This document shows positions 14,311 through 31,456 of a stretch of DNA of 32,000 nt, piece by piece. Position 1 is the first letter of the stretch; each line of letters opens with the position of its first letter. Position numbers and translations under genes: made by a program. The DNA comes from an uncultured Erysipelotrichaceae bacterium (lineage in GTDB: Bacteria > Bacillota_I > Bacilli_A > RF39 > UBA660). Location of the stretch: the NCBI GenBank assembly GCA_948444795.1, contig CAOJUX010000005.1, positions 338 through 32,337 on the forward strand. Reading direction: 5' to 3'. A model generated the notes under the pieces. It saw only the letters and a program-made list of their open reading frames with translations. It was not told the DNA's origin and did not search any database.

Positions 14311-14712
14311 CTATATATGTACTAATAAAGAATAAACTTCTTCATTAATCTTATTTTTTTCTAAATCTTTACAAGTAACAATTATCAAACAATTATCTGG
14401 TATATCAAAAGTACTAATTTTTTTATATTTTAATATTTCAATAAATTTTTTTTGTTCTAAAAGAGGAATTTCATTAATATTTTCAATTATTAAAATAGCT
14501 TTATCTTTTATACTTTTTGAAATTAATTCTCTATACCATAAAGGAGGCCAAAAATTGGTATCTTCATAATGTCCATTTAATAATTCTCTTGGTATATCTG
14601 CTTTTAAAACAACAGCATTTTTAAAAGAACTAGTTACTATATTATCTACTAACAATGGTGAAATATTTGCTTTAAAATAATTATCAAACATTTTTAATCT
14701 TTTACTATTCAT
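14311..14712 (-). CDS. Hypothetical protein between the ATPase and VWA genes
   Basis: Its ATG overlaps the ATPase stop (TAATG at 14714-10) and it ends 9 nt before the VWA gene, so translational coupling in an operon is likely. Confidence 0.55.
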   Translation of the reverse strand: MNSKRLKMFDNYFKANISPLLVDNIVTSSFKNAVVLKADIPRELLNGHYEDTNFWPPLWYRELISKSIKDKAILIIENINEIPLLEQKKFIEILKYKKISTFDIPDNCLIIVTCKDLEKNKINEEVYSLLVHI

Positions 14713-16286
14713 TATCTTGACTCCCCTCTCTTCATTTCTTCTTCCATTTCTATCTCAACTAAATACTCTAATCTTTCCTTATCACCATGTGCCCACATCG
14801 ATTCAAACGCTGCCCTTGATTCTGATCCAACCAATTTCATAAAATCTCTTACTAATCTAAAGTTTTCAAAATCAACTGAAGATAATCCTGCTGCAGTTAC
14901 AAACTTTTGAGCGGAGTTCATATTTAAATCTGTTTCAGTATAATTATGATTTATAACATCATCAACTGTTATTACTCCATACCTTACAAATTCTTTAAAA
15001 TCTACTGTTAACTCTTCTCCAACAAGAGCTCTAAGCATATCAGGTCTTCTTGTCTTATAAAGTACTTTAGAAGCCATTTCCCATTTTCTAGGATCAGCAT
15101 TAGGTTTATTACCTGTATATTTTGTTCTTAAAACATCAATGCCAGAAAAATACTTATAAGAAATATAAGCATATATTGCAGGATGAATTTTAAACTCAGT
15201 TCCATCATCTTCATAATCTAATCTCTCATAATTCTCTTTTGGTGTTACTGCCCATTTAAGCCAGCTACTTACTGTCGTTTCAATATAAACATGAGCAAAT
15301 CTATTATAAAGTGGTTCAGAAAGTTTATTAGCAGACATAGAATCAGAAAGTTCATTTCCTGCGGCAACAATTCTCGCATTACTAGGTAATTTCCATTTCC
15401 CATCAATCTCTTTATCTAAAACAATATTAAAAGCCTGTCCCTGAACCGAAGGAAGTGCATTTGTAAGCTCATCAAAGAAAATAATATGAATCTTATCAGG
15501 CTCAGCTTCACATCTTTTAAGTACTTTTTGATACCAAGTTGGAGGAATATCAATCATCTCTTTAGTTTCTGAATTATATACACTTTTACCATTTAAACTA
15601 GAAGGAGTAGCATTTGCCATATAAATTATTTCACAATCTGGATCAAGTTCTTTAACTCTTGCTGATTTACCATCACTAGATTTACCATGCAAAAAAACAG
15701 GAATATTACTCTCAATAGCTCCTTTTATAATATCTTCTTCACTTACATTATCAAAATTAAAATCATATACATTTTTACTATTTATAGTACTATTTATAGT
15801 ATTATCTATTGTTATCTCACTTGGAATTATAGCTTTTGCTAGATACTTATCCATAAACTTTTTTATATTAGTATTATCAAAATCGCAGGTATAATCTACT
15901 TCATTAAATTGAACACCTGAAAAAATTATTTTCTTAGCTAAAACTATTTTTTTAACACTATCAACTATCCAAGTTATTGGTTCAACCAAGACAAAATAAG
16001 GTCTTCCCTCTTCTATCCTTTGACCATTTGACAAAGTTTCTCCCGCACTATTAGTATCTGCTACTATTCGAATATATTTATTACCATTATATTCATATTC
16101 TGAAAAAAATCTTTCTTTAAAAGATTCATTTGTATTACTGGTAGAAACTGAATCAGCTGGATACTCTTTACCAGTTTTATTTAAATTGCCAATCACATAT
16201 AAATTTTCTAGAATATTTTCTAGTTCTACAGAAGCAACAGTTTGTGGAAACTCTCCATAATCCTCTTCAAAAACTCCCCCTCTCAC
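14712..16286 (-). CDS. MoxR/AAA_5-like AAA+ ATPase; C-terminal 524 codons of the DGR target frame
   Basis: Walker A is LHGKSSDGKSA, Walker B is IIFFDELTNA, sensor is AAGNE, plus LYNRF. It is in the same frame as ORF 16383..16616 and is separated from it by only one TAG. Confidence 0.8.
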   Translation of the reverse strand: MRGGVFEEDYGEFPQTVASVELENILENLYVIGNLNKTGKEYPADSVSTSNTNESFKERFFSEYEYNGNKYIRIVADTNSAGETLSNGQRIEEGRPYFVLVEPITWIVDSVKKIVLAKKIIFSGVQFNEVDYTCDFDNTNIKKFMDKYLAKAIIPSEITIDNTINSTINSKNVYDFNFDNVSEEDIIKGAIESNIPVFLHGKSSDGKSARVKELDPDCEIIYMANATPSSLNGKSVYNSETKEMIDIPPTWYQKVLKRCEAEPDKIHIIFFDELTNALPSVQGQAFNIVLDKEIDGKWKLPSNARIVAAGNELSDSMSANKLSEPLYNRFAHVYIETTVSSWLKWAVTPKENYERLDYEDDGTEFKIHPAIYAYISYKYFSGIDVLRTKYTGNKPNADPRKWEMASKVLYKTRRPDMLRALVGEELTVDFKEFVRYGVITVDDVINHNYTETDLNMNSAQKFVTAAGLSSVDFENFRLVRDFMKLVGSESRAAFESMWAHGDKERLEYLVEIEMEEEMKRGESR

Positions 16287-16327
16287 TCCGTTCGAGGAGA
16301 TACTTTGGATTAAAGAGTACGGTAAAG

Positions 16328-16405
16328 CTGGGCGGGAACCAACATCACAATTAGTAACATCGCCCCAGTCATCATTACCACTCTAACTAACAGCGCGGGC
16401 ACAAT
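16328..16405 (-). repeat. DGR variable repeat (VR)
   Basis: It is 69/78 identical to 17896-17973. The nine differences are at 16349, 16350, 16361, 16363, 16364, 16370, 16373, 16381 and 16387. Eight of them are opposite TR adenines in the minus sense. Confidence 0.9.
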
Positions 16406-16616
16406 TTGAATTATAAGGTGTTTTTGTCCACCAATAACCAGTTCTATTTTTTAATTCATTATCATTATTTACATGAAAACTATCAGATACATAACCACCT
16501 AACAAAATTAAAAAATCAGTTATAGCAGCTTTTGTTCCATATATATTCATTATTTCTGATTTATTATCACCAAAAATTTGGTTAACATCTAAAAAAGTAA
16601 AGTTCATATCCATCAC
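16383..16616 (-). CDS. N-terminal part of the DGR target: ligand-binding-like variable domain, terminated by an in-frame TAG inside the VR
   Basis: FTFLDVNQIF...TKAAITDFLILLGGYV...GYWWTKTPYNSNCARAVS*, continued after the TAG by SGNDDWGDVTNCDVGSRPAL. This resembles the FLLS..E / YWLRSP / GVRPAL lectin-like domains known as DGR targets. The best RBS (AGGTGA) favours the ATG at 16607. Confidence 0.7.
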   Translation of the reverse strand: MMDMNFTFLDVNQIFGDNKSEIMNIYGTKAAITDFLILLGGYVSDSFHVNNDNELKNRTGYWWTKTPYNSNCARAVS

Positions 16617-16650
16617 CTAACTATAGAATAGCATACTTTGCCATTTTTTA

Positions 16651-17664
16651 TCAATCATCTTTCAAAGAAATTGTAAAGTTTTTAAAATTTTTCTTTTCAT
16701 TAGTATTTTTAACATGATTATAAAATGAATTTAATCTTTGCTTTACATAATCTTCATCTACTATACCTTTGATGTACAACTTATTTACGGTTTTTAAATG
16801 TTTTTTTATTCTTTGTTTTGACGAAGAACGGAGTTTAACAACTATTTTTCCTTTAGGTGTTAATATATGCCTAAAACCTAAAAAATCTACACCATTACTT
16901 AGCCTTCCAATTTGAGTTTTCTTATTTAATTCAAGTTTTAATAATTTTAAACACATTTCTTCGATTACATTCTTACAATAAACTAGATACTTTTTATCTC
17001 TAGATATCAAAATAAAATCATCCATATATCTCACATAATATTTAATATTCAATTTTTCTTTAATAAAATGATCAACTTTATTTAAATAAAATAAAGCAAA
17101 CCATTGGTTAGATTGACTTCCTAAAGGAAGACCTTCATTTTTATTATTTATTAATATTTTTATTAACCATTTTTCATCTTCCGTAAAATCTATATCATTT
17201 AAAAGTTTTAATAAAATATCATGATCTATACTTGCAAAATATTTTCTTATGTCGCATTTTAAAAAATATATATAATTATTATTATATTTAAAGAATTCTT
17301 TTTTCATAAATTTATGTAATCTTTCAATAGCAAAATGCGTTCCTTTTTCTATCCGACAAGCACAATTATCAAATATTAATTTTTTTTCTATTTTTGGTTT
17401 TAAAACAATATCACAAAAGCATCTAATTACTACTCTATCTTTAAAAGGATAAGCTTCTATTAACCTTTGTTTAGGTTCATATATAAAAAATTTTTTATAA
17501 TTTCCTAGTTTATATTTTTTAGTAACAAGTGCCTTATTTAAAGAGTATAAATTAACTGCCAAATTAACCTCAAATCTAATAACTTCTCCTTTATGTTGTT
17601 TTGAATTTCGACATTTTTTATATGCTAAATAAAGATGATCAAAACTAAAAATTTCTTCTAACAT
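16651..17664 (-). CDS. DGR-type reverse transcriptase
   Basis: CDIRKYFASIDHDIL (RT motif 3/A), GLPLGSQSNQWFALFYL (DGR-like [I/L]GxxxSQ-type motif 4) and YVRYMDDFILIS (YxDD). It is 337 aa with no maturase or endonuclease domain and lies adjacent to the TR. Confidence 0.92.
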   Translation of the reverse strand: MLEEIFSFDHLYLAYKKCRNSKQHKGEVIRFEVNLAVNLYSLNKALVTKKYKLGNYKKFFIYEPKQRLIEAYPFKDRVVIRCFCDIVLKPKIEKKLIFDNCACRIEKGTHFAIERLHKFMKKEFFKYNNNYIYFLKCDIRKYFASIDHDILLKLLNDIDFTEDEKWLIKILINNKNEGLPLGSQSNQWFALFYLNKVDHFIKEKLNIKYYVRYMDDFILISRDKKYLVYCKNVIEEMCLKLLKLELNKKTQIGRLSNGVDFLGFRHILTPKGKIVVKLRSSSKQRIKKHLKTVNKLYIKGIVDEDYVKQRLNSFYNHVKNTNEKKNFKNFTISLKDD

Positions 17665-17895
17665 TATAATTTACCTCCAAATAAAATAAACACCCCTTTA
17701 AACATCCAAAAAGTTTTAATAAACTTGTTGTTTGTGTGAGTGTTTTTATATATTCTTCTATCGCATTTTAAATATTTATTTTAGCGATTAGAAAAGAAGA
17801 AAATTCCTTCACCTTACAATACTGATATATTTATCTTAAAATATATTTCTCTGATTTGTTTTCTGAATTTTTATATAATTCCTTCAAAAGTGAAT
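17665..17895 (-). ncRNA. TR-to-RT spacer, expected to be part of the DGR template RNA
   Basis: A 231-nt non-coding gap lies between the TR 3' end and the RT start. In characterised DGRs the spacer RNA is needed for priming. The role here is inferred. Confidence 0.4.
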
Positions 17896-17973
17896 CTGGG
17901 CGGGAACCAACATCACGTTTAGTAACATTGTTCCAGTTATTATTACCATTCTAATTAACAGCGCGGGCACAAT
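17896..17973 (-). repeat. DGR template repeat (TR)
   Basis: Minus sense reads attgtgcccgcgctgttaattagaatggtaataataactggaacaatgttactaaacgtgatgttggttcccgcccag. It has 22 adenines and six in-frame AAY codons, and lies between the Avd-like ORF and the RT. Confidence 0.9.
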
Positions 17974-18026
17974 AGAGGCCAAAATATAAATTTTCTTCTT
18001 AATTAAAGGCCTTTGGACCAATAATC

Positions 18027-18611
18027 CTAATTGTTTTTGTTAAATCTTTTATCATCACTTTTTTTCCAAGAGGTAATTAAACTAATAGCTTCGGCAAGTT
18101 GTATTGATATTTGTTTATATTGTTTTTTTAAAATACAACCAGAACTTTCTGCTATCATTGCTACATAACCTAATAATTTTAATTTAACTATAGCTTCTTT
18201 TTGAAAATCTTCTCTTTTTACTTTATTACTATTAGAATCTAATCTTATAAAATTTGCATTTAAAAGACATTCTAATGTATCTAAACAATAATTTTGCATT
18301 CTATTTACAAATACTCCTCTAAATCTTTTAGGAGAATTTTCTGTTACCGCAATTACATAAGCGCATAATTTTTTTACAATTGTAATAACTATCAAGTCAT
18401 TAGAATTTTGCGGTATTTTATTAATGATTTTTTGCTCTTTTTCTTCTTCTAAAATTATCTTTTTTACAATATCTTCATTAAATTTATTATTATTAGCTAT
18501 CGCAAATTCTTTCTTTATTGCTAGTACATCCTCTGTATTGTTTACTGAATCAAGATCAAGATTAATTTCTTTTGGTATTTTTAAATTGTTTGTTCTATTA
18601 ACCTGTAACAC
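18027..18611 (-). CDS. Avd-like accessory protein (four-helix-bundle type) with an N-terminal extension; start uncertain
   Basis: It occupies the position immediately 5' of the TR. The C-terminal ~120 aa are helical and end in ...QLAEAISLITSWKKS, reminiscent of Avd / 23S-IVS four-helix-bundle proteins. GTG start without a good RBS. Confidence 0.5.
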   Translation of the reverse strand: MLQVNRTNNLKIPKEINLDLDSVNNTEDVLAIKKEFAIANNNKFNEDIVKKIILEEEKEQKIINKIPQNSNDLIVITIVKKLCAYVIAVTENSPKRFRGVFVNRMQNYCLDTLECLLNANFIRLDSNSNKVKREDFQKEAIVKLKLLGYVAMIAESSGCILKKQYKQISIQLAEAISLITSWKKSDDKRFNKNN

Positions 18612-18747
18612 TTATTAATTTTTCATAAATAAAATATATATTTATGATTACCTCCTAAGATATTATAACATTATTTTTTGATTTTTAAATATATATTAAT
18701 ATATTTTATTTATTATAGTCATAAAATTGAATATAAGTAGGTGAAAA

Positions 18748-19224
18748 ATGAATAATGAATATGCTCTTAATTTTATAATTCCTACAGGGCCATCAGGAGA
18801 TAATGGTGTAATAGAACCTAGTATTAGTTTGGTTTATAATGACATGACAACAAGTGGAACAGTTTCAATTAATAGAAGTACAATATATCCTAAAGATTCA
18901 ACTGTCTTTACAGTTCAAAATAATCAGTTATTATTTAATAGTCGTGGTAAATTTGAATATAATATATCTGGTATAATAAAAAAACAAAACTCAGATTCAA
19001 CTACGAACTTAGTCTTAAGAACAAGAAATAATTCTGGTATTACTAATAATTTATTCGTATTTAATGTTAATCAAGGGGAAGATGAAATTTATTTTTTCCA
19101 AACAAAAATTGGCGAATACTCTGGATCTCAATCTGTTAATTTAATATTTAATAAAAATGCTGATTCAAGTTCGAAATTAGAAAATGTTGAACTAACTATA
19201 AAAAAATTATATGATTGGGAATAA
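18748..19224 (+). CDS. Paralog 1 of a small beta-rich protein family (BclA-C-terminal / C1q-TNF-like suspected)
   Basis: N-terminal EYALNFIIPTGPSGDNG, an internal G.FEY.ISG, YFFQTK, and C-terminal LTIKKL. These are shared with the next three ORFs. Confidence 0.6.
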   Translation: MNNEYALNFIIPTGPSGDNGVIEPSISLVYNDMTTSGTVSINRSTIYPKDSTVFTVQNNQLLFNSRGKFEYNISGIIKKQNSDSTTNLVLRTRNNSGITNNLFVFNVNQGEDEIYFFQTKIGEYSGSQSVNLIFNKNADSSSKLENVELTIKKLYDWE

Positions 19225-19227
19225 AAA

Positions 19228-19689
19228 ATGGAAGAAAATATAGAATATGTAATAGATTTTATTTTACCTAAAGGAAAACCAGGATATGGTTCCTTTGAAG
19301 CATTAACATATATAACATTTCAAAATCAGATAAATAATGGTTCTTTAACTAGTTTAAAAGCATTAAAAATACCACGAAATACTAATATATTTAACGTTAC
19401 TAATAATATTATAATAGAACATACTGGCTGTTATATATTTACAATAAGCGGATTATTAAAAGAATCTGGAAATACTAACCCATTATTTAATATACAACTA
19501 GAAAATAATGGTATATCAGAAAATCTCATAACAGTAAATTTAAATCTAGAACAAAAATTATATTTTTCACAAACTAAAGTTAAGAATTGCCAAAAAAATA
19601 CTATAATAAAACTAACTTTACAAAAAGCAAATAATTCTGATGCATCTTTAGAAGGAGCAAATTTAATAATTAAAAAATTACCCTTATAG
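19228..19689 (+). CDS. Paralog 2 of the same family
   Basis: EYVIDFILPKGKPGYG, GCYIFTISG, YFSQTK, LIIKKL. It starts 3 nt after paralog 1. Confidence 0.6.
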   Translation: MEENIEYVIDFILPKGKPGYGSFEALTYITFQNQINNGSLTSLKALKIPRNTNIFNVTNNIIIEHTGCYIFTISGLLKESGNTNPLFNIQLENNGISENLITVNLNLEQKLYFSQTKVKNCQKNTIIKLTLQKANNSDASLEGANLIIKKLPL

Positions 19690-19702
19690 AAAAGAGGAAA
19701 AA

Positions 19703-20155
19703 ATGGAATATTCACTCAATTTTGTTATTCCAGAAGGATTAAGAGGAGAATCAGCTATTGAAGGAATAGCATATCTTGAATACCTTTCAAAACAGTCCCA
19801 AGGTGAAGTTGATATAAACTCTTCTAATTCATTTACCAATAATACAACTATTTTTTTTATCTATACAAATAAAATTTTATTAAAAAAAGAAGGATTATAT
19901 GAATTTATATTTAGTGGTAAAATATTTACATCAATTAATTCAGATTATTCTTTAAAACTAATAAGTGAGAATAATGGTAATGTTCAAGAAATTATAGATT
20001 TATCATTAGAACAAAGTATTAATGAAATTTACTTTTCAAAAATAAAAATCTTAAATTTATCATCAGATAATAATATTTCAATAATTTTTGATCCTAAAAA
20101 CAATAAAATTATTAATTTAGAAAATACAACTTTATTAATTAAGAAATTCAAATAA
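19703..20155 (+). CDS. Paralog 3 of the same family
   Basis: EYSLNFVIPEGLRGES, GLYEFIFSG, YFSKIK, LLIKKF. Confidence 0.6.
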   Translation: MEYSLNFVIPEGLRGESAIEGIAYLEYLSKQSQGEVDINSSNSFTNNTTIFFIYTNKILLKKEGLYEFIFSGKIFTSINSDYSLKLISENNGNVQEIIDLSLEQSINEIYFSKIKILNLSSDNNISIIFDPKNNKIINLENTTLLIKKFK

Positions 20156-20210
20156 ATTATTTTTGACTATCTTTTTATAAGTTCATTGTAAATAAAGAAC
20201 CTTTATAATA

Positions 20211-20243
20211 AAAAAAGGACATATTAATTCTTGTCCCTTTAAA
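20211..20243. terminator. Bidirectional terminator between convergent paralogs 3 and 4
   Basis: aaaaaaaGGACAtattaattctTGTCCcttt, flanked by an A-run and a T-run. Confidence 0.5.
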
Positions 20244-20254
20244 GTTATTAATCT

Positions 20255-20740
20255 TTAATTTAATTTTTTTATAAGTACATTTACATGATCTGTTTCTACC
20301 GTTGGAGTATTATAAAAACCTAAACTTACACATAAATTAATCGTTTGATCAAATTCAAAAACACCAGTTGATGAAAAATAGGTATATTGATTATCTCCTA
20401 ATAGTTCAATATCCATATCAGGTAAAGTAGTTGTTGCACTACTTGTTATAGCAAGTAAATGAAGAACAGCCTGACCAGTCGTTCCTGGTTTTTTTAAATA
20501 ACCAGAATATGTTATTTCGTATAAACCAGGACCCATTTGAACTTCTTGCCCAATAATTGTATAATTTGAAGAATTAGTAGGATAAATTTTGTTTTTTTCA
20601 ATATCTAAATCTCCTTGAATATTTTTTTTATTCATGTAGCTAATAAAGCAGATATTAGGCTCTGCAGTTGGGCCAGTTGGGCCTGTAGTTCCACAAGGAA
20701 TCACAAAATCTAAAACATATTCATTTGATTTTTCTGCCAT
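20255..20740 (-). CDS. Paralog 4 of the same family, with a GPTGPT collagen-like remnant
   Basis: EYVLDFVIPCGTTGPTGPTAEP, GLYEITYSG, YFSSTG, VLIKKL. Confidence 0.6.
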   Translation of the reverse strand: MAEKSNEYVLDFVIPCGTTGPTGPTAEPNICFISYMNKKNIQGDLDIEKNKIYPTNSSNYTIIGQEVQMGPGLYEITYSGYLKKPGTTGQAVLHLLAITSSATTTLPDMDIELLGDNQYTYFSSTGVFEFDQTINLCVSLGFYNTPTVETDHVNVLIKKLN

Positions 20741-23030: not shown

Positions 23031-23786
23031 TTATTCATTATCTTCTAAAAAGTAATTAACCATTTTTTCATAATTATCTTGACTATTTAAACAAGTATCT
23101 ATTAAATAACCTTTTTCATTATTCGTTTGATATTCTTTAATACCTCTTATATAAAAATCTTTATTTCTATCTTCGATAAAGAAAGGCATTATGTCATTGT
23201 ATAGACACTCTTTAAACATTATCATTCTTCCAACTCGACCATTTCCATCTTGGAAAGGATGAATTTTTTCAAATCTAACATGAAATTCAATAATATCTTC
23301 AACCATCTTTTTATCTATTTTATCATACCAATAGAGTAATTCTTTCATATCACTTGCTACATTACTTGGAAGTGATGTTGTAATGTTACCAACAAAGTTC
23401 TTTTTATTTTTATATTCTCCTACATTAAACCATTCTTTTTCACTATCAGTTAAAGTACCAGCTTTTAAGATAAAGTGAAATTTCTTTATCATATCCTCAG
23501 TTAGTTTATCATCAATAGTATCTAACATATATTTAAATAAAGTAAAATGATTTTTTATTTCAGTAGCATCTTTTAAAACAATAACTTTATCTTTAGTCGT
23601 TAAAATTGTTCCCGTATCATAAATACTTGCAGTTTCATCAGGTGTTATTGTAGATCCTTCTATATGATTTGTATTGTAAGAAAAATCAAGTTGAGTTTTA
23701 TGATAAAGGTTACCTGATAAACCAATATTTTTTTGTTCAATCAATGCTTTTTTTATTTTACTTACTTCCATTTTTCTTGCCTCCAT
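23031..23786 (-). CDS. Fic/DOC-family protein (AMPylase-type)
   Basis: The canonical HPFQDGNGRVGR motif is present. Confidence 0.9.
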   Translation of the reverse strand: MEARKMEVSKIKKALIEQKNIGLSGNLYHKTQLDFSYNTNHIEGSTITPDETASIYDTGTILTTKDKVIVLKDATEIKNHFTLFKYMLDTIDDKLTEDMIKKFHFILKAGTLTDSEKEWFNVGEYKNKKNFVGNITTSLPSNVASDMKELLYWYDKIDKKMVEDIIEFHVRFEKIHPFQDGNGRVGRMIMFKECLYNDIMPFFIEDRNKDFYIRGIKEYQTNNEKGYLIDTCLNSQDNYEKMVNYFLEDNE

Positions 23787-23883
23787 ATATTCCTATTATA
23801 ACATTTTTTGCAAATGATTAATATTAATTTATATTAAAAAAATCTAACTCAATTATACAACTATAATAGACTAACTGGTACAA

Positions 23884-24429
23884 TTAAAATTCATTTTTCA
23901 AAACATGATTTAGAAACTCTACAATATCAAGTTCTTTATCTTTAAATAAAACTCTGTTAACATTCTGATTATTTATAAGTAGAGTTCCTTTTAGCATATT
24001 ATATTCTACACAACAATGATTATCTATCTTAAGCAATTTATCTTGTAGTTTAATTTCAGGCACATTATAAATCATTGCAAGTTCACTTCCTATGTTCCTT
24101 TCTTTTGCTCTAAATAAATGCCCACAATATAAACATAAGTGAGTTCTATGTGGCGTATAAGCAAACTTTCCATTATCAGAATGATAACGTCCACAATGAC
24201 TACATTTTACCATTTCTAATGGTATATTATTTAATTTAGCAAGCATTATTCCACCAAAGTCTTTATAGGTTAATAAAGATTTATCATATTCTAATACTCC
24301 ATTAAATACTTTATTATTTATTATTATTTTAGGGATAACATTTTCTAATATATTTTCATATTTAATACTTATATTCTTAATTTCATTTTGCTTAATATTT
24401 AATCTATTATTATATATTTCTTCTAACAT
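23884..24429 (-). CDS. Hypothetical zinc-ribbon protein
   Basis: CSHCGRYH...HLCLYCGHLF gives CxxC...CxxC. A good RBS (aggagg) precedes it. Confidence 0.5.
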   Translation of the reverse strand: MLEEIYNNRLNIKQNEIKNISIKYENILENVIPKIIINNKVFNGVLEYDKSLLTYKDFGGIMLAKLNNIPLEMVKCSHCGRYHSDNGKFAYTPHRTHLCLYCGHLFRAKERNIGSELAMIYNVPEIKLQDKLLKIDNHCCVEYNMLKGTLLINNQNVNRVLFKDKELDIVEFLNHVLKNEF

Positions 24430-24676
24430 ATTTCCTCCTTCTTATGAATCGGTCAGACGCGTCTGGCCAATTCATTATATAATATTTAGTATTATCTTAA
24501 ATTTTTTAAGTATTAAATTTTACAGATATTATCTGAACTTTTTGCGCTTTAATATCACTTATATTATAGCATTATTATTGATACTATTTTATGTAGCATT
24601 TTTGTTAAACTTTCTTAATCAAAATTAACACTTTTTAACCTCTTTTATGTAAATTTAATCACTTTTAATTCATAAT

Positions 24677-24702
24677 AACAAAAATGGAGCCTTAAAGGCT
24701 CC
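24677..24702 (-). terminator. Orphan minus-strand intrinsic terminator in a 470-nt intergenic region
   Basis: Minus sense reads GGAGCCtttaaGGCTCC followed by ATTTTTGTT. There is no annotated minus-strand ORF upstream of it. Confidence 0.4.
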
Positions 24703-24899
24703 TTCAGGGGGCTAAAATTTATTGCATATAAAATTAATTATTGCTAATTAGTTCCTTATATTTTAAGCAATTCTAAATCGTTTTAGATTAATAAAATTTA
24801 AAATATATTACTTAATTTTGTAATTTGAGTACCTATTTGGGTACCTAAAAGAGATATACTACTACTTATATTCTTCCTATAAATGAAAGGAAAAATATT

Positions 24900-25262
24900 A
24901 TGGAAATAACTTATACTAAATGTGGTGATTATTTATTACCAAATCTAATTTTAAAATCTAGAAAACAAGAAAATTTAAATAAATATGGGCTAATGAGATT
25001 AGACTATCTGAAAAAGAATAAATCTACCTTATATCAACAATTATTAATGCAGGATAAACTATACGATCATCTTTTTTCAGTCAGTGTTGAAGCAGAAAAT
25101 AAAGTTAATTATCTAATTGATAAAATGGTTAAACTAGATGGCTCTATTAATGAAAATTTAAAAGTAACTAATCAAATGTTATGGGTACAAAAAATGAATA
25201 ACTATAAAAATACTGCTGAAGAAATAGTTTTAAAAGAACTTATCTATGGAGATACAATATGA
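24900..25262 (+). CDS. TnpV-like protein (accessory protein of Firmicutes transposons and ICEs)
   Basis: ITYTKCGDYLLPNL...YGLMRLDYLKKN...LYQQLLMQDKLYDHL...MLWVQKMNNYKNTAEEIVLKELIY matches the TnpV family pattern as I recall it. Confidence 0.65.
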   Translation: MEITYTKCGDYLLPNLILKSRKQENLNKYGLMRLDYLKKNKSTLYQQLLMQDKLYDHLFSVSVEAENKVNYLIDKMVKLDGSINENLKVTNQMLWVQKMNNYKNTAEEIVLKELIYGDTI

Positions 25263-25570
25263 TAAAAGGTAAAGAAGATATAACTGATAAAGAATTTGAA
25301 GAGATACTCCTACCTTTTTATGACAACTACAATGAATATATGATTAACTATGTTATTCCAGACACCATAGCATTTTATCTAGCAAATGGATATAGTAGAG
25401 ATTGTCTATCTGATTGTCCATTATATAATCATATCAATTCTGCAATAGATATTTTTAATGTGAGCTGTGATATTAATAATTTAACACCACAGATAAAACA
25501 AATTTTAAAAATTAAATTTAATCTCAAAATAGTAAATGATAATCCACTGAAAATTGAAAAATATATGTAA
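25259..25570 (+). CDS. Hypothetical protein
   Basis: 4-nt overlap with the TnpV-like gene, followed by a terminator. Confidence 0.5.
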   Translation: MIKGKEDITDKEFEEILLPFYDNYNEYMINYVIPDTIAFYLANGYSRDCLSDCPLYNHINSAIDIFNVSCDINNLTPQIKQILKIKFNLKIVNDNPLKIEKYM

Positions 25571-25573
25571 GAA

Positions 25574-25612
25574 AATAAGCACTTTCTAAATAATAGATTG
25601 TGCTTATTTTTA
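25574..25612 (+). terminator. Intrinsic terminator
   Basis: AATAAGCAC (25574-25582) pairs with GTGCTTATT (25600-25608), followed by TTTAT. Confidence 0.6.
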
Positions 25613-25648
25613 TATCTATATTGTCCTAGATATCTATATTGTCCTAGC
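25613..25648. repeat. Tandem direct repeat, 2 x 18 nt (tatctatattgtcctag[a/c])
   Basis: Read directly, 17/18 identical. The second unit runs into the left inverted repeat. Confidence 0.9.
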
Positions 25649-25671
25649 CAGCACTGAAAACCTACTCCCGC
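25636..25671. repeat. Left copy of the ~36-nt inverted repeat (atattGTCcTAGCCAGCACTGaaaacCTACTCCCGC)
   Basis: It is the reverse complement of 29366-29401, with identical blocks TAGCCAGCACTG and CTACTCCCGC. Confidence 0.85.
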
Positions 25672-25703
25672 AAGGTTTTCTATTATGGGAAAACCCATAC
25701 CCC

Positions 25704-27110
25704 TTATCTATTATTATTTATAACCTGTATCAACTCTTTAACTGATTTAGATAATTCAACGTCAGTATAAATAATATTATTATCAGGATGATCTATGCAA
25801 TTTCTTATATAGGTGGGCAAAGTATCATACTCTTTTATATTGTGTACACTAATTTGTTTAAAATAATGTTTTAAAGTAGCACCTTGATTTTTTAACCACT
25901 CATCAGTTTGTTTAATACTAGCATTACTTAATAAATTCCCATTACAGTCTGATACATAGTTTTCCTGAACATAGCCATATAGCAAATTATGAAAATCTGT
26001 GGTAAATAAATCAAATATAGCATATTTAATTTCAGCAATTGTGATAGTTGGCAAAACTATCCCTTGCGAATCTTTGTAAAATTTTTGGTAAGAATTATTA
26101 CTTATTTTTATTACCAAACAATCATCTTGGTTTAATGCGCTTGATAAAATATGTTCTGAATGAGTAGCAATAAAAATCTGTGATGTTTGAATTAAATTTT
26201 CAGAAAAAATATTTTTATAATAATCAAATATTTTTTCTTCCCATTTTGGGTGCAAGCTTATTTCTGGTTCATCAATAAAAACTGGAACACCTTTTAAACT
26301 ATTCTTATTTTGTAATAAATATGTACCTCTAAATATTATTTGTTTTTCCCCTGAACTTAAGGAAGATATGTCTATCTCATTATTACCCTTTTTAAAAACA
26401 GGCATTGAATTGTTTCTTATACCTTCAAATTCTATTGTTTCACTAAAAATAACTTTAAAGGCATCAGTAAAACGTTTCAATCTAACATGATAAATATCTT
26501 CTGGTACAGGGCTTCCCTTGTGTTTTCCTATCCAAGAGTCTATATCACAACTATCTTGTACAGAAATGTTTACTAAAAGTTGGATTATCTCAAAAGCCAT
26601 ATCATTTGGTATTTCACATGAAACATTATCTATTGTTTTATTAGTTGGTCCTTCGACATTATTTCTTGGATTGTAATTAATATCAACATTTGAATATAAG
26701 CCATTTATTTTAAAGTTTTCAAATTTCTCTGTTGAATCTTGTCTTTTAACATTTTTAATTACTGAACCATCTTTTATAAATTTAATAGAGTAAGATAGGC
26801 TACCATTTTCACTCTTTGATATAGTCAAAATTGCATCATTTATTGTATCTTGTTCATTATCAAAGTTACAATAATTTTCCGATGATACATCTATAAATAT
26901 TTCGTGTGTTACCTTCGGATAAACAATACTAAAAGTATGAAAGTTAGTATTACTGATATTATATAATTCTTCTAACAATTTTGTTTTTCCACTTCCATTT
27001 TCTCCAGCAATTATTATATTATTAAAAGTTATACCATTATTAGTAAAGTCAAAAGTTTGATTACCAAATATTACATGATTGAAAAATTTTATTGATTTAA
27101 TGCGAATCAT
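25704..27110 (-). CDS. AAA_15/AAA_21-type (ABC/SMC-like) ATPase with an unknown C-terminal domain
   Basis: Walker A is IIIAGENGSGKTKLLEEL, the signature-like motif is LSSGEKQ, Walker B is VFIDEPEISLHP, and the H-loop is ATHSEHIL. Confidence 0.8.
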   Translation of the reverse strand: MIRIKSIKFFNHVIFGNQTFDFTNNGITFNNIIIAGENGSGKTKLLEELYNISNTNFHTFSIVYPKVTHEIFIDVSSENYCNFDNEQDTINDAILTISKSENGSLSYSIKFIKDGSVIKNVKRQDSTEKFENFKINGLYSNVDINYNPRNNVEGPTNKTIDNVSCEIPNDMAFEIIQLLVNISVQDSCDIDSWIGKHKGSPVPEDIYHVRLKRFTDAFKVIFSETIEFEGIRNNSMPVFKKGNNEIDISSLSSGEKQIIFRGTYLLQNKNSLKGVPVFIDEPEISLHPKWEEKIFDYYKNIFSENLIQTSQIFIATHSEHILSSALNQDDCLVIKISNNSYQKFYKDSQGIVLPTITIAEIKYAIFDLFTTDFHNLLYGYVQENYVSDCNGNLLSNASIKQTDEWLKNQGATLKHYFKQISVHNIKEYDTLPTYIRNCIDHPDNNIIYTDVELSKSVKELIQVINNNR

Positions 27111-27199
27111 AATTTACACCTTACCTTCTATATATATACAATTTCTATTAAATTGCATATTTCGGCCGATTTTTATATATACTATTAAAGACATAGTTA

Positions 27200-27228
27200 T
27201 TGACAAATAATCATTTATTTGCTATATT
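27200..27228 (+). promoter_or_regulatory. Near-consensus sigma-70 promoter pointing antisense to the flanking genes
   Basis: TTGACA (27200-05), a 17-nt spacer, then TATATT (27223-28). Confidence 0.55.
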
Positions 27229-27234
27229 AAGTAT

Positions 27235-27312
27235 GTCAAAAGCAATTAAGTTTGCTTGGGGTTCGTGGTATCACGGACGGTAAGAACTGGTTTATCCAGT
27301 TCTTATTTTTTG
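27235..27312 (+). ncRNA. Candidate ~75-nt small RNA (promoter-to-terminator unit)
   Basis: Hairpins are AAGCAAttaagtTTGCTT and CGTGgtatCACG. The terminator is AAGAACTGGtttatCCAGTTCTT plus ATTTTTT (27282-27311). No ORF is present. Confidence 0.45.
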
Positions 27313-27313
27313 T

Positions 27314-28159
27314 TTAAGGAAATATTTTTATTCCTTTATTTTTATAATTTGGATACCCAACTATTTTATTTTCAAATGTTAGAAATGCCTTATCTTGGGT
27401 ATTTCTTTTAACATATTTATGAATTGGATATGAAAACAAATCTGTTATTTCTAATCCAACATAAGTAGAACTATATTCTTCATTCCATTTAGGATTAAAA
27501 TATACTCCTTCTATTTTAGATTTTAGTTCTTTAGAACTAATTTTTTTAGTGCCTGTTTTATTGATAACTTTACTAATATGTTCTAGCAATTCGTTATCTT
27601 CATCTTTACCTCTTGCTTCAAGCATTATTACACCTTTTTTATTATTTTCAGTAGCATAGATATATCTTTCTAATAGAAAATCAAATGCTACATTATAAAC
27701 ATTATGAGTATAACCTTTTTTCAAATATTCATAAAGATTTATACTAATTGAAATAATTTTACATTTTATATTCTTCATAGTATCAGTTAAATCAATCATA
27801 AACTCATTATAATTTATAACACTATCATTAAAGCAATTATCGTGTTTTCTTATATCTCTTGAGTGAAAGCATACCGCTTTATCTCTCTTTAATTTACTAT
27901 CATAAAACATACCATTTTCCCAGTACTTATTTTTTAATGACTTTATAATTTTCTTTGAGTTTATATATTCTTCTTTTGTAAAAATACACCCTGTAATGGT
28001 AAAGTATTTATCATCTTCTGATATTTCTTTTTCATTAGATATTTGTTTTAATACATAAGTTAAATTACTGCTACTGCCATTTTCATCAATACACATAACA
28101 TAATCAATATCCTTTTTCATTGATAAAATTTTAGTAGGTTTATCATACCATTTTGACAC
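27314..28159 (-). CDS. DUF3800-like protein
   Basis: The N-terminal VMCIDENGSS resembles the DUF3800 [I/V]DESG start motif. Assigned from recollection only. Confidence 0.5.
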   Translation of the reverse strand: MSKWYDKPTKILSMKKDIDYVMCIDENGSSSNLTYVLKQISNEKEISEDDKYFTITGCIFTKEEYINSKKIIKSLKNKYWENGMFYDSKLKRDKAVCFHSRDIRKHDNCFNDSVINYNEFMIDLTDTMKNIKCKIISISINLYEYLKKGYTHNVYNVAFDFLLERYIYATENNKKGVIMLEARGKDEDNELLEHISKVINKTGTKKISSKELKSKIEGVYFNPKWNEEYSSTYVGLEITDLFSYPIHKYVKRNTQDKAFLTFENKIVGYPNYKNKGIKIFP

Positions 28160-28175
28160 TTTACCATCTCCTAAC

Positions 28176-28718
28176 TTAATTACTTAAACTGAATTTTGAT
28201 ATTTCTTCACCTGGATAATTATATAAAACTATTTCATCAAATTCTAAATAAAATGGTTCAAATTTCTCTAATATTTTACTTTGCAAAGTCTTAATAATTT
28301 CATAATCTTTATCAATATGTAAAGTCATATGAAATATAAAATTTTCTGGGTTATAATGTTCCTTTGGAAATTTACAATAGAAAAGTTTTTGTAATTCTTT
28401 TAAATCTTGGTTATCTTCTATGCCTAGATATAAAACATAACTATCATATTTACCATTCATTATTTCAACTTTATTTATTTTTAATTTTATTTTATCAATA
28501 TTAACTGTTTTAATTAAATCAATAAATTCATCTTGATTTTCTTTATTTGTAGCAAAAATAGTAAAGTGGTATGGTAGATTATCAATACCATATCTATGCT
28601 CATCATCAATACCATATGGGACTTTACAAGTTTTAAGTTTAATATCCGACATAAGTTTATCAATTTTCTTAAGTTCACTTTGCTCTAGACTACTTATTAA
28701 TGTAATTCTCCTACTCAT
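28176..28718 (-). CDS. 2H phosphoesterase superfamily protein (LigT / cyclic phosphodiesterase-like)
   Basis: There are two HxTx motifs, YHFTIFAT and FHMTLHID. I trimmed the start to the ATG at 28718 (MSRRITL...), which removes the overlap with the upstream gene. Confidence 0.7.
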   Translation of the reverse strand: MSRRITLISSLEQSELKKIDKLMSDIKLKTCKVPYGIDDEHRYGIDNLPYHFTIFATNKENQDEFIDLIKTVNIDKIKLKINKVEIMNGKYDSYVLYLGIEDNQDLKELQKLFYCKFPKEHYNPENFIFHMTLHIDKDYEIIKTLQSKILEKFEPFYLEFDEIVLYNYPGEEISKFSLSN

Positions 28719-28722
28719 AAAA

Positions 28723-29319
28723 CTAATCACCCTTACATTCATGTAAATAATTATATATATCAATCCAATTTTTAAAACAGTTAATGTTATCTTTTTCAAC
28801 AATATCATTATTTGCAATCATAATTGCAGAAATTCCCCCTGTAATAACATTTTTGCAATTACTAATACTATCATCGATTAATATATCTATATTTTCATCT
28901 AAACAAATTTTCTTTTTATTTCTTGCATTTACAATTAATTTATCAAAATATATATCATTTTTATTTAACCAATTCATACTTTGCTTATATGGATCTTCAT
29001 GAAACTCACTATCTCTTGCTGTAATTATATATATTTCATTTCCTTCATCATGCAATTTTTTAATTATTTCCACGCAATCTTTTCTAGGGATAGCATTATT
29101 AGTTATACTTTCTTGAATTGTCCCTAAAAAATGTTTTAATTCTTCATAACTAAAATCAAATATTTTTTGATAAATATTACCATCGTTATAAACATCATTT
29201 ATTTCTATATTTTCATTTTCTACTTTTTTATTAAGTGTTTTTGCATACTCAAAAGCAGCATTATTTAACTGTTCTCTTATATCTGTTAAAGTATCATCTA
29301 TATCTATTCCTATTCTCAA
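28723..29319 (-). CDS. HAD-family 5'(3')-deoxyribonucleotidase-like (NT5C-like) phosphatase
   Basis: MRIGIDIDDTLTD (DxDxT), IITARD, and ILIDDS. TTG start 7 nt after GAGGTGA. Confidence 0.65.
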   Translation of the reverse strand: MRIGIDIDDTLTDIREQLNNAAFEYAKTLNKKVENENIEINDVYNDGNIYQKIFDFSYEELKHFLGTIQESITNNAIPRKDCVEIIKKLHDEGNEIYIITARDSEFHEDPYKQSMNWLNKNDIYFDKLIVNARNKKKICLDENIDILIDDSISNCKNVITGGISAIMIANNDIVEKDNINCFKNWIDIYNYLHECKGD

Positions 29320-29365
29320 AATAATTCACCTCACATTATTAGGGTTTGGTACTCCAATTCAAATG

Positions 29366-29401
29366 GCGGGAGTAGATCCGCAGTGCTGGCTAAGACACTA
29401 T
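29366..29401. repeat. Right copy of the ~36-nt inverted repeat (GCGGGAGTAGatccgCAGTGCTGGCTAaGACactat)
   Basis: Reverse complement of 25636-25671. Confidence 0.85.
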
Positions 29402-29491
29402 TTTGCAACTAATGACAAGAGTGACATTTATAATAGACTCTACCCTAGAGTATTTATCTCCTGTCACACTGTCATTACTTACCGAAAAAAA

Positions 29492-30019
29492 TTATTTTTT
29501 AGACTTATTATCATCGATATGTACTATAGCATATTCCATTTTTTCTATATCTTCGTTAATGGTATTGACCATATTTTTAAATGCTTTATCTACTTTATTT
29601 TTTTCAGTTTGTTTCAATTTTTCATATTCTTTTGTCTTTTTATAATCATTTTTATTTATAAAATCTAGCAAAATTTCTTTAGCAAGAATATCATATTTGA
29701 AATTTTTTATGTATTCATCTATCAATGTAATTGATGAATCATCATTCTTAATTGCAATATTTGTATAGATTTTGTTATCAATTATTTCAATTTCTTCTTT
29801 AGTATAATCACATAATTTCATTAATTTTTTTACATCAATACCTAATACCATAGATAATTTTCTTAAAGATAGTACATTAGGTTTCTTTCTTTCACCCTTT
29901 TCTATCTTTGCTAGTGTGTTATTATCTATTCCAGTTCTTCTTGATAATTCTCTTTGTGATATACCTATTTTTTCTCTAGCACTCTTTACTACCATGGCTA
30001 AAGTTTTTTCTTCCATCAA
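29492..30019 (-). CDS. XRE/cI-type HTH repressor
   Basis: KIGISQRELSRRTGIDNNTLAKIEKGERKKP is an HTH_3 motif. It is divergent from the replication/integration genes. Confidence 0.85.
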   Translation of the reverse strand: MMEEKTLAMVVKSAREKIGISQRELSRRTGIDNNTLAKIEKGERKKPNVLSLRKLSMVLGIDVKKLMKLCDYTKEEIEIIDNKIYTNIAIKNDDSSITLIDEYIKNFKYDILAKEILLDFINKNDYKKTKEYEKLKQTEKNKVDKAFKNMVNTINEDIEKMEYAIVHIDDNKSKK

Positions 30020-30105
30020 TTACACCTCATTTACTCATCTACTACCATTTTAACACAATTTTGATTGCCAAACAATATTTTTGTGAGTTTTGATTACAAA
30101 ATGTA

Positions 30106-30157
30106 TTGACTTAAATTAAATCTGTATGATAATATATTGTTGTGAGTATAACTCACA
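30106..30157 (+). promoter_or_regulatory. Rightward promoter with an overlapping palindromic operator
   Basis: TTGACT (30106-11), a 16-nt spacer, then GATAAT. The palindrome TGTGAGTataACTCACA is at 30141-30157, and an extra half-site TTGTGAGT is at 30081-30088. Confidence 0.5.
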
Positions 30158-30239
30158 TATATAATTCTTTTCTTTATTGGTAATCCATATACATAGATAT
30201 TTTTATATCTAGAGTCTAACGAAAGGAGGAACACTTAAT

Positions 30240-30476
30240 ATGGATGCTAGAGAAACATTAAAACTTATTTCTAAGCAATGGTGTAATCTTAATGATTTAA
30301 TGCTACTTGCTGAAATAGGTAAAAATAATGCAGTGAAACTTAGGAAAGAGATAAAACAAGATTTAATAAATCAAGGTTATACTCTTCCCAATAACAGATT
30401 ACCAATGATTGAAGTCGTTAATAAGTTAAAAATAAATATTAATTATTTAGAAAAAATGGCAAAAGAAAATTTATAG
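30240..30476 (+). CDS. Small DNA-binding protein (Xis / regulator-like)
   Basis: 78 aa with a strong RBS (aaaggagg). It is the first gene of the rightward operon. The function is inferred from position only. Confidence 0.4.
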   Translation: MDARETLKLISKQWCNLNDLMLLAEIGKNNAVKLRKEIKQDLINQGYTLPNNRLPMIEVVNKLKININYLEKMAKENL

Positions 30477-30487
30477 AAAGGAATTAT

Positions 30488-31456
30488 ATGAAAACAATAG
30501 AAGAATTAAGAAGTAGTATTGTCGATATGAATTATATCATTAAAGATATGATTCGTGAAAATGGTTTATATTGCTTGCTTGGAGAAGCCAAAGTTGGTAA
30601 ATCCGCTATGGCTCTTCAAATAGCAAACTCTATTTGTAATGGCATTTCTTTTCTAGATTTAAAAACAAATAAAACACCAGTCCTTTATTTAAGTACAGAG
30701 ATGAATCCTACTGAAACAATAAGTCGTATAAATCTTATGGATTGTAAATTAAATACCAATGATTTCTTTTATACTTATCCAGAAGAAAACTCTACACAAC
30801 TTAGTATTATTAAAGTTGAAAAAGAAATTATGAACTTTTCTGAAAAGTACAATGGAAAACTCGTATTTATAGATATGTTTAATGGAATTAATTTTGGCTA
30901 TAACTATGATTTAAATAATTATCAAGATATGAGTCAAAATATATTTCCACAAATTAGAAATCTATGTAATAAATATAATGTTTCTATTATATTAGTTCAT
31001 CATTTAAATCGTAAAGGTAAATCTTTAGGTAGTACAGCAATAGATACTTGTGTTGATGGTAAAATAGCACTAAAACAAGATGAAAATATCAAATCAACAT
31101 TCTATCTAAAGTATGAAAGTAGAGATTATCCAAGTAAAAATTATATTTTAAAAAGAGATAATCATTTAATACTTACGATTGATGAGGATACCGAAGATAA
31201 ATTAAATGATAATTTAATACAATTCTTAAAATACGCGATTAACAAGCAAGAATTTACCTTTAAAATATCAGAAATGGTAAGTAAGTTAAATTTAAATATT
31301 ACACCACCTGTATTTGGTAAATTACTTACAAATAACAAAGAAAAGTTAGAAAAATTGGGACTCACTATTAAATCTAAAAGAACTGCTACAGATAGATTTT
31401 ATACTGCTATATATAAGGAACCTTTACTTGAAAGCAATAATTTCGAGGAGGAATGA
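30488..31456 (+). CDS. RecA-fold P-loop ATPase (AAA_25 / RepA-like replication protein)
   Basis: Walker A is GEAKVGKSAMALQIA, Walker B is LVFIDMF, plus ILVHHLNRKG. Confidence 0.7.
   Translation: MKTIEELRSSIVDMNYIIKDMIRENGLYCLLGEAKVGKSAMALQIANSICNGISFLDLKTNKTPVLYLSTEMNPTETISRINLMDCKLNTNDFFYTYPEENSTQLSIIKVEKEIMNFSEKYNGKLVFIDMFNGINFGYNYDLNNYQDMSQNIFPQIRNLCNKYNVSIILVHHLNRKGKSLGSTAIDTCVDGKIALKQDENIKSTFYLKYESRDYPSKNYILKRDNHLILTIDEDTEDKLNDNLIQFLKYAINKQEFTFKISEMVSKLNLNITPPVFGKLLTNNKEKLEKLGLTIKSKRTATDRFYTAIYKEPLLESNNFEEE

Follow-up and report, generated by a model that had tools for sequence, protein, structure and literature searches.

We analysed a 32,000-nt stretch of DNA from an uncultured Erysipelotrichaceae bacterium (GenBank assembly GCA_948444795.1, contig CAOJUX010000005.1, positions 338 to 32,337 of the forward strand; hereafter the window), and found in it, with very high confidence, a genuine and complete diversity-generating retroelement (DGR). 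To our knowledge, no natural machinery other than DGRs is known to hypermutate chosen proteins in prokaryotes. The template repeat (TR) of this element carries an in-frame stop codon that recurs in the variable repeat (VR) of its target gene, and stops in the same frame were found in most TRs of its closest relatives. We put at roughly 55% the probability that this is a DGR with a stop-bearing template maintained across its clade, acting at once as a hypermutator of a binding site and as a stochastic on/off switch of the gene concerned, and that the window copy is currently off. The element was assigned to the DGRs because of the adenine-specific mismatches between its repeats, the match of its reverse transcriptase (RT), the matches to Avd models, the boundary between the initiation of mutagenic homology (IMH) and its TR-side counterpart IMH*, a covarying spacer RNA, and relatives that share one TR and differ in their VRs.

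Coordinates are window positions throughout; the whole cassette and its target module lie on the minus strand, and the repeats were compared in the minus sense. The repeats, their ends and the stop codons within them were located as follows.

17896..17973, minus strand: TR, 78 nt, intergenic; 8 of 9 mismatches to the VR lie at TR adenines
16328..16405, minus strand: VR, codons ~68-93 of the target, coinciding with the hypervariable block of the protein family
17896..17916, minus strand: TR 3' end (core on the IMH* side), GC-rich 21 nt, invariant
16328..16348, minus strand: IMH, GC-rich last 21 nt of the VR, invariant
17951..17953, minus strand: in-frame TAG of the TR, AAT-TAG-AAT in the VR frame; 7 other relatives have TAA or TAG at the homologous codon of the TR
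16383..16385, minus strand: in-frame TAG of the VR, AGT-TAG-AGT, with the TR as its template; cuts the target short after 74 codons

The two repeats were identical at 69 of 78 positions, and eight of the nine mismatches fell on the 22 adenines of the TR (hypergeometric p=1.0e-4), with none at an adenine of the VR and none at a thymine of the TR. From TR to VR there were seven A>G changes, one A>T and one C>T adjoining the A>T; at non-adenine positions the copies were the same bar one base. A sequence-only reading of this DNA had already reported the two repeats, their identity and the adenine bias, had taken the 17.9-kb copy as TR and the 16.3-kb copy as VR, and had listed the codon changes AAT>AGT (twice), AAT>GAT (twice), AAC>GAC, AAC>GGC, AAA>AAT and CGT>TGT; the coordinates and identity proved exact, the codon changes correct and the roles well founded. 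Its proposal that the invariant 3'-terminal 21 nt form the IMH was likewise borne out: this segment, GTGATGTTGGTTCCCGCCCAG, was the same in TR and VR, had no third site in the window (chance expectation 0), and was followed by flanks that diverge just beyond the core, ATTCAC in the TR and CTTTAC in the VR. The resulting split between GAT TCA in the TR and GCT TTA in the VR was kept in all related cassettes, as befits an IMH*/IMH pair. Neither a further target nor an additional IMH was found within the window, and hairpins 3' of the VR were no better than those of shuffled sequences (z=0.65).

The same reading had described a complete DGR of classical design. The element is indeed complete, but it is not classical, in that both TR and VR contain an in-frame TAG that the reading left unmentioned. 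In the frame of the AAY codons, the TR reads GTT AAT TAG AAT GGT and the VR reads GTT AGT TAG AGT GGT, which places the TAG between the first two AAT>AGT changes in both copies. Besides AAY codons, the TR thus holds an in-frame TAG and an AAA, and the nonsense-avoiding placement of adenines described for DGRs is absent from it. Because the VR spans this TAG, translation table 11 calls the target as two open reading frames (ORFs), 16616..16383 (77 aa) and 16286..14712 (524 aa), which merge into a single gene:

14712..16607, minus strand: target gene, merged frame, 631 codons including the internal TAG; likely start ATG at 16607, with AGGTGA 5 nt upstream

In the database, more than 2,800 proteins of ~645 aa, every one continuous, aligned with 99% of the merged frame at 45-63% identity, and in the family alignment the TAG sits on a hypervariable column of the scaffold ARxV-x-x-x-G-xxxxxx-V-xxR-xGxRPALPYS; on both grounds the merged frame was taken as the true gene. 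There was no second lesion in the target, all family-invariant residues were kept on both sides of the TAG, and all five genes of the module were open apart from the VR stop. As sequenced, then, the target gene of the window copy is off or truncated, judging from its reading frame. An assembly artefact, by which TR k-mers would have been threaded into the VR, was considered and rejected: the VR TAG has VR-specific bases on both flanks, and every VR stop found among the relatives described below was likewise flanked by VR-specific bases or was itself a VR-specific codon.

Genome-wide recoding of stops (for example, genetic code 15 or 4) was rejected after the use of stops and the merging of ORFs had been checked in the window and 14 related loci. 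Of the 41 long ORFs in the window, 7 end in TAG, among them the avd-like gene and the gene adjoining the target, and reading through TAG merged one ORF pair alone, that of the target. Genes of the 14 related loci end in TAA, TAG and TGA alike, and essentially no stop other than those of the VRs splits a gene there. No tRNA gene was found in the window.

Relatives were collected by scans of reference genomes, metagenomes and viral contigs, which yielded 164 loci (denoted by L-numbers), almost all from gut metagenome-assembled genomes labelled uncultured Bacilli or Tenericutes. Among these, 23 distinct adenine-biased TR/VR pairs were recognized, namely that of the window and 22 relatives (p=1e-3 to 1e-10 in the 22), all with the same five-gene synteny and with the TR ~1.5-1.6 kb upstream of the VR; the RTs of the relatives were 54-70% identical to that of the window. 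In the window subfamily, defined by the scaffold ARxV...G(A/S)RP, 14 of 15 pairs and 12 of 13 distinct TRs contained one or two in-frame stops, at the following positions.

Stop position a (codon after GTT-AAY): TAG in the window and L020; TAA in L004, L006, L008, L013, L021 and L043
Stop position b (scaffold Trp codon): TAA in L005, L009 and L159; TGA in L004 and L008
Two codons beyond position b: TAA in L017/L092/L093

Position b is TGG in the TRs of the window and L006. In the sister subfamily, in-frame stops were found in none of six distinct TRs (Fisher p=3e-4 versus the window subfamily). As a control, 51 distinct TRs of unrelated DGRs were called de novo with the same logic; a TR stop was present in one of them, at the extreme 3' edge, and none of their VRs contained a stop (Fisher p=5e-11). 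That single control TR, L173 from a viral contig with a DUF6273-type phage target, has TGA two codons from the 3' end of the repeat, and its VR has TGC there. In an RT tree, a crude neighbour-joining tree built without outgroups or support values, the stop-bearing lineages were deep and paraphyletic, with clean clades nested among them, and the TR stop has therefore been either long kept or repeatedly gained. At every locus with a VR stop, the Avd and RT were intact and the rest of the target was open. Given the conservation across the clade, the intact cassettes and the contrast with other DGRs, we consider that the TR stop has probably been maintained rather than acquired by accident.

Some relatives have broken parts: the RT of L006 is a 254-aa ORF and the avd of L081 is interrupted. 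Tandem arrays of target paralogues without an adjacent DGR occur in many related genomes (L049:7175-14909, L026, L040/L041, L030); in some the VR regions are the same (L049 has three such copies), in others they have diverged without adenine bias.

We then compared the template codon with what reaches the VR. The VR still held a stop in 7 of the 15 pairs (TAG in the window, TAA in L005, TGA in L008, TAG in L021, TGA in L017/L092/L093), and the remaining VRs, apart from two exceptions, had TTA, TGG, TGC, TAT or TAC (Leu, Trp, Cys, Tyr), as adenine mutagenesis predicts. The exceptions are L006:7202-7282 and L013:1627-1701, where the TR has TAA and the VR has AGA (L006) or CCG (L013), the T being changed as well, which suggests either that the VR was last written from an AAA codon that has since become TAA in the TR, or non-adenine errors. 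Where a DGR RT lies directly upstream, 7 of 32 targets contained a VR stop; of the 77 paralogues that lack such an RT, none did (p=1e-4). The stops therefore come from the DGR. Over the family, TR adenines were kept in 58% of cases and became G in 20%, C in 12% and T in 10%, and under this spectrum one rewrite from the window TR leaves a stop with a probability of ~0.6. Across the subfamily, 7 off alleles were observed against 9.1 of 15 expected without selection, and the mutated fraction was 0.54 for stop-codon adenines and 0.46 for other adenines; off alleles are therefore not noticeably purged. From these comparisons of repeats it is shown that a stop in the template gives each retrohoming event two possible results: the allele is off, or it is on and has a new binding loop.

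Diversification is live in this family of elements: two sets of loci (L017/L092/L093 and L051/L052/L062) carry an identical TR with different VRs across samples, which is direct evidence. In the first set (L017:7214-7291, L092:4714-4791 and L093:4714-4791), the one TR has TAA and the VRs, otherwise different, all have TGA together with one and the same synonymous GGA>GGC change; partial replacement of the VR, common descent, or selection for a possibly leaky TGA could account for this pattern. No strain variant of the window element came to light: no contig was returned when the RT, the 524-aa fragment and P0001 were looked up as exact proteins.

The target is predicted to begin with a DUF6273-like variable domain, followed by a beta-rich domain in the middle and an ATPase of the AAA_5/MoxR type. 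Its VR is N-terminal (codons ~68-93 of 631) rather than at the C-terminus, where the VR of a typical DGR target, a receptor-binding protein, lies in a C-type-lectin or Ig fold. The DUF6273 match at the VR was weak (Pfam E=6e-3, below cutoff; E<=0.01 in 5 of 31 family members), and that to AAA_5 was marginal (E=1.3e-4, 22.5 bits versus a cutoff of 22) and covered the C-terminal half of the model alone. A Walker A-like HGKSSDGKS at residue 308 and a Walker B-like IIFFDE at residue 376 are present. AlphaFold2 models were poor, with a predicted local distance difference test (pLDDT) score of 56 for the full-length target and 45 for the variable domain alone, and Foldseek and PDB profile searches with the variable domain and the ATPase gave no significant match. 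Two further genes follow the target.

14311..14712, minus strand: 133-aa gene, overlapping the target stop; syntenic in 22 of 22 related cassettes at 41-65% identity
13138..14301, minus strand: DUF2201_N + DUF2201 gene, 387 aa (Pfam E=2.1e-26 and E=2.6e-13)

The 133-aa protein had no match in Pfam, NCBIfam or PADLOC. The DUF2201 gene, coding for a putative metallopeptidase with a VWA-like part two genes downstream of the target, is syntenic in all relatives; its product is the expected partner of the MoxR-type ATPase and would supply the vWA component of a vWA-MoxR system. None of the effector and defence families of PADLOC matched the target, the 133-aa protein or the DUF2201 protein. The three are read as a putative sensor-plus-ATPase module for conflict or recognition.

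The remaining parts of the cassette lie upstream of the target, and the gene order proposed from the sequence alone (avd-like, TR, RT, target) is correct, with the Avd-like ORF at 18611..18027 and the RT at 17664..16651.

18662..18689, minus strand: best match to a sigma-70-like promoter, TTTAAA-16-TGnTATAAT, shortly before the Avd-like ORF; a candidate cassette promoter of low weight
18027..18611, minus strand: Avd-like gene, 194 aa, ending in TAG; its C-terminal ~110 aa match bAvd
17688..17894, minus strand: structured spacer RNA with five helices, between TR and RT, from an alignment of 18 cassettes
17894-17887 / 17815-17808, minus strand: spacer helix H1; the TR 3' flank TTCACTTT pairs with AAGGTGAA, ~70 nt downstream
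17881-17876 / 17870-17865, minus strand: spacer helix H2
17846-17838 / 17833-17825, minus strand: spacer helix H3
17792-17784 / 17764-17757, minus strand: spacer helix H4
17745-17738 / 17695-17688, minus strand: spacer helix H5, AAACACTC / GGGTGTTT, then a T-run
16651..17664, minus strand: DGR reverse transcriptase, 337 aa, with YMDD; Pfam RVT_1 E=1.4e-14
17094-17114, minus strand: RT motif 4, LGSQSNQ in the window and LGNQ(S/T)SQ in 18 of 18 related RTs

The Avd-like ORF matched both Pfam PF22296 bAvd (E=3.2e-6, 28 bits versus a cutoff of 40) and NCBIfam NF033474 DivGenRetAVD (E=2.4e-6, 27.8 bits versus a cutoff of 80); searched by sequence, it had no match in the PDB. The gene is kept at the same place in 21 of 22 relatives at 58-78% identity. 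The protein carries a ~75-aa N-terminal extension before its bAvd-like region; the length of this extension is conserved in the clade, where the proteins measure 194-200 aa. The promoter scan upstream was barely above shuffles in this AT-rich DNA (52 sites versus 41 expected).

The TR-RT spacer (~230 nt) is unusually conserved. RNAalifold, applied to the 18-cassette alignment, gave 39 pairs, 23 of which showed compensatory changes; 97.6% of cells were paired, compared with 38-58% when partners were slid, and none of 500 shuffles reached the observed value. No Rfam family matched the TR or the spacer RNA. By analogy, the layout of H1 resembles the template-primer arrangement of the Bordetella DGR RNA. 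H5 and its T-run stand directly before the RT ribosome-binding site and look like a terminator or attenuator, which could end the TR-spacer RNA ahead of the RT.

The best solved relative of the RT was PDB chain 8ub7_A (E=1.5e-37, residues 2-290), which we take to be the Bordetella bRT, recognized from its sequence (IGSLTSQ, YMDDIVVLG) and unconfirmed by a paper; other solved RTs, of group II introns (1e-7) and retrons (2.5e-6), followed far behind. The sequence-only reading had regarded LGSQSNQ as a DGR-style motif 4, a view that did not hold. The signature of DGR RTs at this site is [LIV]GxxxSQ, with the 'SQ dipeptide' (DiGReF paper, PMC3521204), and in the window RT, alone among those compared, N replaces the hallmark S.

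By analogy with the Bordetella phage DGR, the following mechanism may be envisaged, of which the RNA structure is shown by covariation. An RNA covering the TR and the structured spacer would be made; the helix that joins the TR 3' flank to the spacer would set up priming, and the RT and the Avd-like protein would copy the TR into cDNA, misincorporating opposite adenines. Guided by the common GC-rich 3' end, the cDNA would then replace the VR. The rewritten segment is predicted to be the ligand-binding loop of the DUF6273-like N-terminal domain fused to the MoxR-type AAA+ ATPase, which would work with the 133-aa protein and the VWA/metallopeptidase-like protein. A full-length protein results only if the one adenine of the TR's TAG is mutated, which gives TTG, TCG or TGG (Leu, Ser or Trp); if it is kept, the VR is given a stop. 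The next retrohoming event could thus turn the off gene of the window on, with a new specificity. The TR stop may be kept either for on/off switching of a costly or self-reactive sensor-ATPase or for access to Trp and hydrophobic codons; the near-neutral frequency of off alleles, from a small and phylogenetically structured sample, favours switching. A bolder version, in which chromosomal DGRs of one clade, carried by gut Bacilli-like bacteria, evolved template stops so that each retrohoming event draws a new specificity together with a roughly even coin on expression of the sensor-ATPase, is held only tentatively, and we would sooner expect it to fail than to hold.

Several other explanations were weighed. 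The repeats might be a chance or paralogous pair beside an RT of the retron, group II or defence type, an idea to which the best NCBIfam and PADLOC matches of the RT (group II, Drt3a, retron and UG families) would appeal; all of these were far below their cutoffs, however, and the library used had no DGR RT model. The adenine bias in the window and in all 22 relatives, the match to 8ub7_A, ~30 orders of magnitude better than those to group II and retron RTs, the Avd-model matches, the conserved IMH, the structured spacer, and the occurrence of one TR with different VRs across samples effectively refute it. A dying element, in which a chance TAG in the TR was copied to the VR, the target became a pseudogene and the cassette with the NQ motif is decaying, would fit the loss of the SQ serine from this RT alone, the one non-adenine mismatch, the low fraction of mutated adenines, and the broken L006 RT and interrupted L081 avd among the relatives; moreover, surveys drop more than half of candidate DGRs for premature stops or truncations (Wu et al. 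2018, PMC5758913). A single accident nevertheless does not explain stops in 12 of 13 TRs whose RTs are 54-70% identical, against 1 of 51 in unrelated DGRs, and the five open module genes, the invariant residues retained in a target with no second lesion, and repeats identical outside adenines bar one base are hard to reconcile with decay, which we regard as improbable.

More weight, although still as an unlikely account, is given to a functional DGR whose stop has no regulatory role: TR codons of the form T-purine-purine would be kept for the range of residues they reach, with off alleles as tolerated waste. TAG gives access to Leu, Ser and Trp, TAA to Phe, Leu, Ser, Tyr, Cys and Trp, and TGA to Cys and Trp, and Trp cannot be reached from AAY. 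One recurrent stop position is the scaffold Trp codon, the sense outcomes seen in VRs (TTA, TGG, TGC, TAT, TAC) lie within this range, and the family also uses the stop-prone codons AAA, AAG and AGA, as if generally tolerant of the risk. Waste alleles under purifying selection should, however, be rare, and 7 of 15 alleles are off, near the 9.1 expected; the other recurrent position, besides, tolerates almost any residue in homologues and has no obvious need of Trp. Alternatively, the stop might be decoded into a full-length protein by a suppressor tRNA, high readthrough or local recoding. UGA is read as Trp in relatives of Bacilli and Mollicutes, and the hosts here are related to such UGA-reassigning lineages; TGA stands at the Trp position in two TRs, and three VRs from one TAA template all have TGA, the leakiest stop. 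Against decoding, the window codon is TAG and not TGA, the window lacks a tRNA gene, all three stops end ordinary genes in the window and its relatives with no other gene split by a single stop, and no single reassignment explains VR and TR stops that comprise all three codons. We therefore consider decoding highly improbable.

The preferred reading, a maintained template stop that switches the target, has weak points of its own. The NQ motif means that the window RT may be impaired, and the window VR had the lowest mutated-adenine fraction (8 of 22, with seven of the eight changes A>G); together with the one non-adenine change, this copy could be weakened or recently dead. The window proteins are cluster singletons, found on one 51-kb contig. 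The 12 of 13 stop-bearing TRs come from related lineages and are not independent, so that inheritance from one ancestor under weak selection could explain much, and a TR stop merely halves the yield of productive rewrites, a second-order cost. The agreement between observed and expected off alleles rests on a small sample of 15 pairs, among which three share a TR and each of those three has TGA. The AAA_5 and DUF6273 assignments of the target are weak and both structure models poor, and the role proposed for the sensor-plus-ATPase module is our inference.

The host is an uncultured, very AT-rich gut bacterium related to Bacilli, and the element is chromosomal, with ordinary chromosomal neighbours in the window (ribosomal protein S4, DnaD, a CCA/poly(A) polymerase-family enzyme and oxidoreductases). 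A phage origin was rejected on these housekeeping neighbours, the lack of similarity in a phage collection, and the finding of one target relative alone on a viral contig. Directly beside the DGR, at 18748-20740, stand four short paralogous ORFs (158, 153 and 150 aa on the plus strand, 161 aa on the minus strand) with an N-terminal EYxLxF(I/V)IPxGxxG and a C-terminal IKKL, one of them with a short collagen-like GTTGPTGPT run; Pfam gave no match for them, and none of the related loci contains them. At 23031-31456, within a few kb of the DGR, genes for Fic/DOC, an AAA_21/AAA_15 (AbiEii/OLD-like) ATPase, DUF3800 and an AAA_25/DnaB_C-like protein form what looks like a defence island or a mobile-element remnant.

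These findings bear on how DGRs are recognized and understood. Among those who study DGRs, it counts as a rule of design that templates steer clear of nonsense codons, and this avoidance is even taken as a sign of elements under active selection; the gut-microbiome DGR literature holds that AAY codons never give stops, and one large survey dropped candidates because of premature stops (Wu et al. 2018, PMC5758913). Pipelines that discard such cassettes would systematically miss the present class. In the literature searched, no description of template-encoded stops or of on/off switching driven by a DGR was found, the papers stating the opposite rule or being silent. A clade with template stops, about half of its alleles off and its machinery intact, implies that the rule has exceptions and that, besides varying sequence, a DGR is able to gate expression. 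The combination of an N-terminal variable lectin-like domain with a MoxR-type ATPase and a VWA partner, represented by more than 2,800 homologues, would constitute a new class of DGR target in the gut, and would extend DGR-diversified intracellular sensors from multicellular bacteria to abundant small-genome gut commensals. If the switch is real, it amounts to phase variation by a retroelement: a recognition system that is costly or potentially self-reactive would stay silent in about half of lineages, and new specificities would meanwhile be kept in reserve.

Among known systems, the prototype DGR, that of Bordetella phage BPP-1 (bRT, bAvd, TR, Sp RNA and Mtd), shares with the window element an Avd-like protein, the adenine-specific pattern from TR to VR, a GC-rich identical 3' end that diverges just beyond, a spacer RNA that pairs with the TR 3' flank, and the RT presumed to be the nearest solved relative (8ub7_A). 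Unlike it, the window element is chromosomal, is ordered avd-TR-RT-target rather than target-avd-TR-RT, has its VR at the 5' end of the target, and diversifies a fusion to an AAA+ ATPase rather than a tail-fibre tip; in addition, its TR has an in-frame stop, its Avd a ~75-aa N-terminal extension, and its RT NQ for SQ.

A second comparison is with the DGR-associated vWA-MoxR (VMAP) ternary conflict systems of cyanobacteria and gammaproteobacteria, for which a role in the recognition of invaders has been proposed and in which TR adenines are placed to avoid nonsense codons (Kaur et al. 2020, PMC7159879; Dore et al. 2024, PMC10907252). There, as appears to be the case here, a DGR diversifies the lectin-type sensor of a cellular, not viral, module of MoxR-type ATPase and VWA protein. 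In those systems, however, the vWA protein usually carries the variable FGS/C-lec domain, which is C-terminal, whereas in the window it is N-terminal and on the ATPase; the VWA partner in the window is of the DUF2201 metallopeptidase type; the hosts are multicellular bacteria rather than small-genome gut Bacilli-like bacteria; and nonsense codons are avoided in their templates, the opposite of what was found in the window clade. The phage 'tentaclins' provide a further parallel, having VRs in N-terminal DUF6273 C-type-lectin domains (PMC10743442). In these and other DUF6273 phage targets, the VR likewise lies in an N-terminal domain near the target 5' end, with a similar scaffold, WW(L/T)(R/K)(S/T)P ... 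V ... G ... G(V/A)RPAL; tentaclins are nonetheless phage proteins in which the lectin domain is followed by Ig-like domains, whereas the window domain is encoded in a chromosomal operon and followed by an AAA+ ATPase. No internal stops were present in the TRs of DUF6273-type phage targets among the control DGRs. Finally, classical phase variation by slipped-strand repeats or invertible promoters is likewise a heritable, reversible and stochastic switch of one gene that gives mixed populations. Unlike it, the switch proposed here would be a stop templated by a retroelement, and each turn of it would be obligatorily coupled to re-randomising of the binding site.

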